Source: a virus
Reading direction: 5' to 3' (one strand)
IMG/VR virus record: IMGVR_UViG_3300044535_002275
Location: 64,001-128,000 of that record
Length of the DNA stretch: 64,000 nucleotides
Shown: piece after piece, positions 7,920-40,616 of the stretch
How the letters are laid out: every line of letters starts with the position of its first letter
Position numbering within the stretch: position 1 is the first letter of the stretch
Notes under the pieces: model-generated
The model's input: the letters and a program-made list of their open reading frames with translations, nothing else
What the model was told of the DNA's origin: nothing
Database searches by the model: none
Position numbers and translations under genes: made by a program

Positions 7920-8994
7920 TCAAGATGTACTTGCCAAACCGCTGGTGAAACTCGTCAAAATTCTTTAGTTTGGTTGGTTTGAACGGTAATGCATAAGTGG
8001 TAAGAGCAATCCTAGCACCCATGACAACCAGTTCGGTCTCAAAGTTCTTCATCATGTAAGCAAAGAAGTTGTCGGCCATTTCGTGAAACTTTTCGTCAGT
8101 TTCTTTGCGATCAAGTGCATCTTTGAGTTCGTAGCATAAACTAGTGACCAACGAGTACATGGCCGATACTTCTTTAACGTCAAGATCTTTGACCTTGCCC
8201 GACAAAATGTCTTCGGGCTTGGGCAAACGACTAGAAATCTTGCGATGTGCCATGAACTTGACAGCTAACCCTTCGCCGACTGTACCAGCAATCAAGTCGG
8301 TAGCAGTGACATCATCTAAATCCTCGTCTGCCAACAGCTCGCTTACAAAGAACCACGAGCGTGGTGTAGCAAAAGCACGTGAACTAGATTTAGCATCAAA
8401 ATCGTAGAGATCTTGCTTGGCAAAACTTATGTAACCCACAACATCTTTGTGAGTCTTGTTTTGCACAGCCCATTCGTGCCAGCTAGGAAAGTCTACTTTC
8501 ATTTCCAAGTGTACAAAGCGGTTAGACAACGGAGTAGGCATACGATAAGTAACACCCTTGTCGCTTTCACGATTACCGGCAGCAATCATGACCACATTGT
8601 CGGGCAATACATACTTGCCGCAGCGACGGTTAAGGATCAACTGATAAGCAGCAGACTGTACACCGGGCGGAGCCGAGTTCATTTCATCCAAAAATAACAC
8701 TATTACAGGGTACTGACTGGCTAGTTCTTCGTCAGGCAAATCAATTGGGGGAGCCCAATCCATTTTGCCAAGTTCTTTGTTATAGAAAGGAATACCACGA
8801 ATATCCGTGGGATCCATTTGTCCCAAACGCAGATCGATCATGAAACCTCCTAGTTCTTGAGCAATGTCAGCAACAACTTCGCTCTTGCCAATACCCGGAG
8901 GACCCCACAAGAATACAGGGCGTTTGGTTTTGAAGCATTTAACAATGCTCTTGCGGGCACCAACTGCTGTAACTGTACGGGTATCTACTGACAT
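7906..8994 (-). CDS. MoxR-like AAA+ ATPase
   Basis: Walker A GPPGIGKS, Walker B LFLDE, AAGN sensor, NRF arginine finger; near a VWA gene. Confidence 0.9.
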   Translation of the reverse strand: MSVDTRTVTAVGARKSIVKCFKTKRPVFLWGPPGIGKSEVVADIAQELGGFMIDLRLGQMDPTDIRGIPFYNKELGKMDWAPPIDLPDEELASQYPVIVLFLDEMNSAPPGVQSAAYQLILNRRCGKYVLPDNVVMIAAGNRESDKGVTYRMPTPLSNRFVHLEMKVDFPSWHEWAVQNKTHKDVVGYISFAKQDLYDFDAKSSSRAFATPRSWFFVSELLADEDLDDVTATDLIAGTVGEGLAVKFMAHRKISSRLPKPEDILSGKVKDLDVKEVSAMYSLVTSLCYELKDALDRKETDEKFHEMADNFFAYMMKNFETELVVMGARIALTTYALPFKPTKLKNFDEFHQRFGKYILSANS

Positions 8995-28565: not shown

Positions 28566-29444
28566 TCAATTCCAGTTAGGATCAAACAATACTTGCCCGT
28601 CTGTATTGATATCAAATCCCTTAACTGTGTAGTTGTTAGCTTGTTCTTCGTACCCGGCATAACCGCGAGGATTGCACAGCACAGTAGTTTCTCCAATTTG
28701 ATATCGGAAATCATCATGTGTGTGACCATGTGTCCAAACTCTAATTTCGGGATGGTCCAGCATGAACTCGCTGAGATCACTAGAGTAACCACCGTTCATT
28801 AAATGGTCATCGGCATACTTGGGTTTGATACTGAGCTTGCTGGGTGCATGATGAGTAACCACAACTACCGGTCTAGGATCAGGTCTAGCACGATTGTTTT
28901 CTAACGCAATGCGAAAAAAAGTCAAGGTATCCTTGTGGTGACGATACGCAATTTCTGGCTGGAAACGATAGTAATCGTTGTTGTCATTTTGATAACGAAT
29001 GATCCTAAAATCGTTCATGCAGCTTTTGAGATGAAACATGGTGAGATCATCACCACCGTTCATGTCAGTCCACAAAGTAGCACCCAAAAACAACACACCG
29101 TCCAGCTCGATACTTTCTTTTTCCAGCAAGTACACGTTGGTGGGCAACTGGCTTTTGATGTGATCGTAGGTTTTGTTAAATGTAAAACTGTAGTGTTCGT
29201 GGTTGCCCATGACCCAGATCACATGGCGATATTTTTGACTACATTCTTCCAGTAAAAATCGATAGTAGCGATCAGGCCGTTTAGCAGCCGATTCAAAAGG
29301 TAATGTAACCTGCTCAGGGTTGTAGTCTTTTTCGCTGAGATTTTTGGCTTCAAATACATCACCAGACAGAATCAAGACATCACCCCCGGGCAAGGTCAAG
29401 TCACTAAATTCCAAATGAAGGTCACTAACTAGGTCCACGTGCAT
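28566..29444 (-). CDS. Metallophosphoesterase
   Basis: SDLHLEF, LSGD, GNHEHY, THHAP, HGHTH. Confidence 0.9.
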   Translation of the reverse strand: MHVDLVSDLHLEFSDLTLPGGDVLILSGDVFEAKNLSEKDYNPEQVTLPFESAAKRPDRYYRFLLEECSQKYRHVIWVMGNHEHYSFTFNKTYDHIKSQLPTNVYLLEKESIELDGVLFLGATLWTDMNGGDDLTMFHLKSCMNDFRIIRYQNDNNDYYRFQPEIAYRHHKDTLTFFRIALENNRARPDPRPVVVVTHHAPSKLSIKPKYADDHLMNGGYSSDLSEFMLDHPEIRVWTHGHTHDDFRYQIGETTVLCNPRGYAGYEEQANNYTVKGFDINTDGQVLFDPNWN

Positions 29445-38311: not shown

Positions 38312-38362
38312 ATAAAACTTTACTATAACTCTATTATAACTAAAACTGCATTACCGGTCAAC

Positions 38363-40369: not shown

Positions 40370-40452
40370 AAAAGCAAAAACCCCAGGGTTTTTAATCCTG
40401 GGGTCTTGGTTAAGAATATACGGACTGTGTATATGGTCTAACCAAGACCCCC
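40370..40452 (-). promoter_or_regulatory. Attenuator: mutually exclusive antiterminator and intrinsic terminator at the head of the tRNA array
   Basis: GGGGTCTTGGTTA(40451-40439)/TAACCAAGACCCC(40412-40400) overlaps terminator ACCCCAGG(40404-40397)/CCTGGGGT(40387-40380)+TTTTGCTTTT. Confidence 0.8.
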
Positions 40453-40578
40453 TGATGGCTCGCGATCGCTTGTAATCATCTCGACGGTTGCAAACCCGCA
40501 ATTTGACCAATAGGCTACTGTGCCTAGTTTGGGCTGTTGCGATATCTGCACGAAGTGATTAAGAGTGTTTATTTTCAT
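40438..40578 (-). CDS. Putative attenuator leader peptide (46 aa, contains all 20 amino acids)
   Basis: MKINTLNHFVQISQQPKLGTVAYWSNCGFATVEMITSDREPSGGLG*; ATG 9 nt after the -10 element; stop codon at the end of the antiterminator arm. Confidence 0.7.
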   Translation of the reverse strand: MKINTLNHFVQISQQPKLGTVAYWSNCGFATVEMITSDREPSGGLG

Positions 40579-40587
40579 ATTAAAGTA

Positions 40588-40616
40588 ATTGTACGTGTTT
40601 ATTTATACCTTGTCAA
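40588..40616 (-). promoter_or_regulatory. Dual early/late promoter of the tRNA leader
   Basis: TTGACA(40616-40611)-17-TACAAT(40593-40588) with TATAAATA (40607-40600) in the spacer. Confidence 0.85.

Follow-up and report, generated by a model that had tools for sequence, protein, structure and literature searches.

The window analysed here is a stretch of 64,000 nucleotides from a virus record of 159.5 kb, about 44% complete, that represents an uncultured giant phage; all window features described below lie on its minus strand, and their ranges are given in that direction. A MazG-like gene, a methyltransferase gene and a Met/Arg/Leu tRNA trio occupy 41772-40626, and the same trio recurs upstream in four related loci (L093, L095, L101 and L198). 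No terminator is predicted in the window between the MazG-like gene and the leader ORF that follows, so upstream transcripts could enter the leader. A sigma70-type promoter (TTGACA-17-TACAAT, 40616-40588) matches the consensus at 11 of 12 positions, and its spacer holds the octamer TATAAATA (40607-40600), which resembles T4 late promoters and is, from its sequence, a candidate late promoter. Transcription is predicted to start about 3 nt 5' of the ATG, which would give a near-leaderless mRNA. The leader ORF (40578-40438) has 46 codons, contains all 20 amino acids and draws on 35 codon types, each used at most twice; no Shine-Dalgarno sequence was seen at this ORF. Promoter, octamer, ORF, residue content and codon count had all been claimed in an earlier, sequence-only reading of this DNA, and all were found as claimed. 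Within the ORF, a 5-bp hairpin over codons 18-23 (40526-40511) is a candidate polymerase pause or coupling hairpin; a hairpin occupies the same place in 28 of 29 loci, its stems changed yet paired.

The last four codons and the stop constitute the 5' arm (40451-40439) of an antiterminator, which can form 13 bp with a 3' arm (40412-40400) whose last 5 nt double as the start of a terminator stem. This predicted, covarying intrinsic terminator (40406-40370) combines an 8-11 bp stem (40404-40380) and a 9-nt loop with a U tract (40379-40370). Pairing, stem and U tract lie where the sequence-only reading had placed them; a simple terminator scan overlooked the terminator because of its 9-nt loop.

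On read-through, the first product would be a structured non-coding RNA of about 100 nt (40364-40262, ends approximate), always located between the terminator and the tRNA array. Its hairpin covaries, and it also has a third stem and, by prediction, a pseudoknot. At least 120 pattern matches to this motif were obtained in IMG/VR, and the full motif was present in 52 of the 80 inspected. RNAalifold returned one hairpin only, because of register shifts in the motif alignment, and anchored counts were used instead. No Rfam family matched the structured RNA, and neither GOLLD nor ROOL (Rfam) was matched in the whole window, nor locally at E-values up to 10; the RNA may function in antitermination, in processing or in trans. 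Before the first tRNA stands a 20-bp hairpin (40243-40202), a candidate RNase III processing stem, and 56 of 63 loci have a helix of at least 15 bp after the motif (a raw count, with no null).

The 25 tRNA genes for 20 amino acids that had been counted downstream were recovered, 24 by ARAGORN together with a low-scoring Phe(GAA) at 37094-37019. The first block (40193-38844) encodes Ile(GAT), Pro, Ala, Gly(GCC), Trp, Thr(GGT), Cys, Ile(TAT) and Arg(TCG), and has inside it a gene for an RNase H-like (YkuK-type) protein of 160 aa (39727-39245; PF04308, E 2.5e-16), which also occurs in L003 and L093; in L093 a release-factor-domain gene in the tRNA array (8414-8908; PF03462, PF00472) adjoins the RNase H-like gene. 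The Ile(TAT) tRNA (39020-38926) is an odd one of 95 nt, missed by Rfam and recurrent in many related arrays. The remaining 16 tRNA genes (38311-30392) are accompanied by near-consensus promoters at 38361, 38127, 32869 and 32221. The earlier caveat that internal promoters might restrict the direct target to the first block is relevant to much of the array: these four also feed 16 of the 25 tRNAs, bypassing the leader. No strong promoter was found between the leader and the end of the first block, and in this genome the RNA motif, nine tRNAs and the RNase H-like gene would have no evident source other than the leader gate. A permuted betaproteobacterial-type tmRNA (28075-27681) with its own promoter at 28569 lies at the array's far end. 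It is preceded by an 80-aa ORF that by eye resembles RNA polymerase omega (tmRNA and ORF together, 28511-27681), and a PF01192 gene is found within the tRNA arrays of L268 and L269.

Successive protein searches yielded 3, then 17, then 161 short homologues, with locus searches supplying the DNA; in every locus retrieved in this way the terminator is followed by a conserved non-coding motif. A pattern built from this downstream RNA motif gave 80 further viral loci, the leader not being consulted; a leader was assigned where a terminator stood upstream of the motif and an ORF had its stop 15-42 nt before the stem. By this fixed rule a leader was found in about 96 phage loci, which share the promoter, an ORF of 30-55 codons, the terminator, the conserved structured RNA and a tRNA array. 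Leader length in the alignable family is 39-55 codons, and the stop falls 18-32 nt before the terminator stem in all 64 representatives. A short ORF conserved in related phages, divergent in sequence and near-complete in amino-acid coverage, with a stop fixed relative to the switch, accords with what the sequence-only reading had predicted. No relatives were found among cultured phages; exact patterns of the window's stems had no match in IMG/VR, and a looser stem pattern matched there by chance only. Two apparent relatives were discarded, P0002 as a spurious repeat-protein match and L100 as a chance match.

A scan of GTDB with the motif gave mostly chance matches, with the full motif in 1 of 80 (L278) and a near-full motif with tRNAs in L335. 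The former, a 183-kb contig of a Haliscomenobacter MAG, carries a terminator, the motif, a tRNA array and a diverged leader whose 42 aa include all 20 amino acids, and is probably a co-binned phage contig. The latter, a Gallionellaceae MAG contig of 61% GC, has the RNA motif and eight tRNAs in the first 930 bases of its minus strand, in a bacterial-looking context. These are preceded by two tandem leader-ORF/terminator units, which encode 62 aa without His and 80 aa without Thr and Tyr, jointly covering all 20 residues; the leader/RNA module may not be confined to phages. Some loci (L161, L189, L190, L200, L134, L173 and L179) show an ORF of 2-21 codons at an upstream promoter, before the long leader; this may be an additional layer or mark another promoter.

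Translation of the leader is suggested by the arrangement of its starts. The ORF begins 5-12 nt after a sigma70 -10 box in 38 of the 64 representatives, a TAAATA-type box stands 4-10 nt before the start, a leaderless placement, in 8, and a longer leader with an SD-like motif is present in 13, so that 59 of 64 in total have starts of leaderless type or with an SD-like motif (TAAATA within 45 nt of the ATG is seen in 37 of 64 loci). That several initiation routes lead to the same ORF argues that it is translated. Among close pairs pN/pS is about 0.56 (0.136/0.243) and in-frame indels are common; coding constraint is, on this measure, present, though weak for a protein. The ORF might instead be untranslated, the hairpins being a constitutive read-through or processing signal or a switch worked by a phage protein, in keeping with the missing Shine-Dalgarno sequence at the window locus and with upstream transcripts that may enter without leader translation. 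We consider this extremely unlikely, given a frame that is open, with its stop at the distance noted, in 64 of 64 representatives, an excess of synonymous change and the selected amino-acid coverage described below.

The two stems of the switch covary, as had been predicted. Among 21 aligned short-type loci, compensatory changes affect 8 of the 13 antiterminator pairs and 5 of the 8 terminator pairs (95.8% of cells paired in the latter). None of 500 shuffles equalled either stem's covariation score, in a control that leaves relatedness in; owing to bulges, the antiterminator slid by +1 has almost the same score. The tail of the ORF pairs with the 5' arm of the terminator in 63 of 64 representatives, over a mean of 7.3 nt versus 4.0 for shuffled tails, a weak null, since chance alone gives 4 paired nt in 41 of 64. 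In the window the folding energies are -26.7 kcal/mol for the antiterminator and -17.0 kcal/mol for the terminator. For 19 of 64 loci, equilibrium folding without a ribosome favours the terminator, and there the model would need the antiterminator to form co-transcriptionally. Pairing that might serve as a 1:2 protector was sought; before its partner is made, the antiterminator arm pairs upstream weakly and variably.

When a masking ribosome is included in the model, the terminator emerges when the A site has moved beyond R39 to P41, the exact residue varying with the assumed footprint. The earlier claim that a stall at any codon would free the antiterminator is accordingly borne out by the folding model in its first part, the freeing itself, and fails in its "any codon", as the A site must be at or before R39/E40; codons 1 to about 39-40 form the modelled sensing zone. 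R39 is also the last first-time amino acid of the window leader, all 20 being present by that residue. New residue types avoid the unsensed tail (p<0.0005 for footprints of 7-10 nt, 0.08 for 13 nt), and a conserved DR sits either 9 or 14-17 residues from the leader end, matching two antiterminator lengths.

This last observation bears on whether the peptide acts itself, either by ligand-dependent arrest or as a small protein working in trans, with the conserved YW and DR as functional sites. W24, Y23, D38 and R39 are indeed conserved in the alignable family, and pN/pS is below 1. Against such a role, the W-to-DR spacing varies over 7-18 residues and the DR follows the position of the RNA arm, whereas arrest peptides of the TnaC/SecM type keep a fixed spacing from tunnel residue to arrest site. 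Selection is weak, in-frame indels are frequent, the leader peptide has no Pfam match, and leaders without recognisable homology hold the same coverage; we regard a function of the peptide as very unlikely.

How often 46 codons contain all 20 amino acids is a frequency that the sequence-only reading had proposed to compute, and it is 2.5-3.1% (gene windows or random ORFs), which makes the coverage of the window, taken singly, only suggestive. High codon diversity was rejected as evidence, 35 types being unexceptional given the peptide (p=0.20). The claimed sampling of isoacceptors proved weak, with Arg as CGC only and Leu without TTA and TTG; codon diversity is slightly raised family-wide (33.1 vs 31.1). 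The leader is complete for amino acids, not for isoacceptors. With the coverage of a single locus at this frequency and its codon diversity ordinary, the argument has to come from comparison.

Where loci were located from the motif alone, all 20 amino acids are present in 20 of 41 leaders below 60% identity and in 11 of 29 below 45%; about one complete leader is expected from gene windows or nucleotide resampling (0.7-0.95 for the set below 45%). In 98 alignable diverged leaders (<80% identity), all 19 non-Cys residues are found in 89. Column shuffling gives 37 (maximum 51), and tree simulation with site profiles gives 41 (maximum 66), or 48 at half rates, and never 89. Cys is optional, being absent from 32, and the singletons of Cys, Phe, Val and Lys shift between alignment columns. 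A control is provided by a 48-58 aa (53-aa) ORF between terminator and motif, which has 13-18 residue types and is complete in none of 36 versions. These 36 distinct versions (for example L119:4209-4355, L121:8219-8383 and L122:5235-5384) share a charged helical pattern; the ORF is absent from the window and has no real Pfam match. Judged by these nulls, amino-acid coverage in the leader is under selection.

The same switch could sense bulk translation or coupling only (ribosome shortage, antibiotics, failed initiation or the stage of infection), with the residue content incidental or inherited. The antiterminator outweighs the terminator and no strong protector hairpin is evident, so that any translation failure would turn the switch on; several conserved singleton codons overlap conserved RNA hairpins; and the toiL leader answers five antibiotic classes, with no claim of coverage (PMC12121999). 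Yet coverage exceeds column-shuffle and tree nulls that keep the conserved sites, the Cys, Phe, Val and Lys singletons change columns, and leaders of 39-55 codons are longer than bulk sensing needs. The content of the leader also follows the tRNA inventory, as set out next, and we find bulk sensing alone quite improbable.

Within 17 kb downstream, all 20 tRNA types are present in the arrays behind six of seven complete leaders, and likewise in the window; leaders that are incomplete mostly precede arrays that are too. Among the 26 residues that leaders lack, 20 have no tRNA downstream, against 10.1 for random residues and 6.6 for swapped leaders, comparisons whose p-values are optimistic, the loci being related. 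In the complete genome G001 the leader lacks Cys alone and so do its 42 downstream tRNAs, an absence that is supportive only, as the tRNA-Cys pattern search used there missed the window's own tRNA-Cys. A prediction set beforehand held in that the four further Cys-less leaders for which there was DNA show no tRNA-Cys within 6-10 kb downstream, a test that spanned at most 10 kb when tRNA-Cys can lie 12 kb from a leader. Exceptions, in which a residue is absent though its tRNA is present, are L135 (His), L206 (Val), L165 (Cys, Leu) and L127 (Glu, Val). Comparison of the loci shows that, for every amino acid with a tRNA in the array, selection retains one codon or more in the leader.

We consider it likely, from comparative sequence and folding models, that the element is a ribosome-coupled transcription attenuator which senses slow decoding of any amino acid and gates the structured RNA and phage tRNAs; we hold with high confidence that some form of translation-coupled attenuator is at work. 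Host RNA polymerase would start just before the ATG with a ribosome following. Under prompt decoding, the folding model has the ribosome reach the last codons and stop and cover the 5' arm, so that the terminator folds and transcripts end near 40375. A lag at any codon up to about R39/E40, or a lack of initiation, would allow a 15-bp antiterminator to form first and lead to read-through; the tRNAs then made would restore decoding and close a feedback loop. Translation, termination near 40375, induction by slow decoding and the feedback are the inferred parts of this scheme. An untranslated leader is likewise predicted to be on, so antibiotics or failed initiation would be expected to trigger the element as well.

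The natural signal for this codon-level switch could be host amino-acid starvation, acting through uncharged tRNA, rather than tRNA loss or cleavage, an alternative that overlaps with the favoured reading in mechanism and differs from it in purpose alone. Coverage by amino acid and not by isoacceptor would suit starvation, and amino-acid deprivation induces whiB7 (PMC10274678). The regulated genes, on the other hand, are tRNAs, which would not be expected to relieve starvation, and leader content follows the tRNA set. Compared with phage genes, in a tally that leaves relatedness in, the leaders also favour codons that have no exact counterpart among the phage anticodons (GCC, GCG, GAG, GAT, TAT and CGC). 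For these reasons we think starvation an unlikely purpose, if one that deserves serious weight.

A link of the attenuator to anti-phage tRNases is a plausible hypothesis. The window leader has codons for the Lys, Tyr and Glu tRNAs that are cut by PrrC or AriB, retron PtuAB and RloC; amino-acid starvation or lost host tRNA synthesis would trip the same switch. That leader content co-evolves with the phage tRNA inventory and that the array is induced specifically on depletion of host tRNAs, for example by tRNA-cutting defences, is a possibility we entertain while leaning slightly against it. If true, it would constitute an inducible, effector-independent counter-defence and direct evidence on why phages carry tRNAs.

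The purpose of phage tRNAs has been open for more than 50 years, the leading ideas being codon compensation and the replacement of host tRNAs cut by defences (PMC10264068); an array switched on by slow decoding would favour conditional rescue of the tRNA pool. The regulatory element is real and conserved, very probably a case of leader-peptide attenuation whose unusual design rule has statistical support, and it would extend such attenuation to tRNA genes and to phages. At 250 nt the element is testable in a plain reporter and could itself serve as a small, general-purpose reporter for shortage of tRNAs or amino acids, for which nature offers variants lacking chosen residues.

In the classical attenuators (trpL, hisL, pheL, pheST, thrL and ilvGMEDA), the leader carries runs of one to three amino acids, a 1:2 protector is present and the untranslated state is off. 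The phage element resembles these in its leader ORF, in mutually exclusive 2:3 antiterminator and 3:4 terminator pairings near the stop, and in its proposed feedback through charged tRNA. Unlike them, its leader has all 20 residues without codon runs, it is predicted to be on when untranslated, and tRNA genes lie downstream in place of biosynthetic or synthetase genes. T-box and other Rfam leaders gave no match at the gathering score (best E 0.04-0.7, well short of the thresholds). A literature search, with most subscription papers outside its reach, returned no report of attenuation of phage tRNA genes. In Anabaena, the trn operon of 26 tRNA genes is repressed by TrcR and silent until translation stress (PMC10272220); there, however, a repressor protein acts at the promoter, and that paper mentions no attenuation or leader. 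The toiL uORF of E. coli topAI senses translation stress and frees a ribosome-binding site (PMC12121999), and leaderless polycysteine sORFs likewise combine translation-stress sensing and a leaderless start with a freed ribosome-binding site (10.1101/834739), whereas the output in the phages is an intrinsic terminator before non-coding genes.

Closest is the whiB7 uORF of mycobacteria, in which stalling leads to the antiterminator and read-through, in response only to encoded amino acids; deleting one Trp codon strongly cuts Trp sensing (PMC10274678), which supports the idea that single codons suffice. In M. smegmatis this uORF contains every amino acid except Cys, and loss of its start codon raises expression (PMC10274678). 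Both systems have a long, diverse uORF overlapping an antiterminator, predicted and covarying in the phages, that competes with an intrinsic terminator. The whiB7 uORFs, however, are 25-40% Ala and often lack several residues, and their target is a transcription factor (PMC10274678), whereas Ala makes up 5.8% of phage leaders (6.8% of phage genes) and the place of whiB7 is taken in the phage by a non-coding RNA, by tRNAs and by an RNase H-like gene. In the phages, moreover, coverage itself is selected and the tRNA inventory matches the leader. The whiB7 uORF is the nearest published mechanism, and the phage element is not a member of that family.
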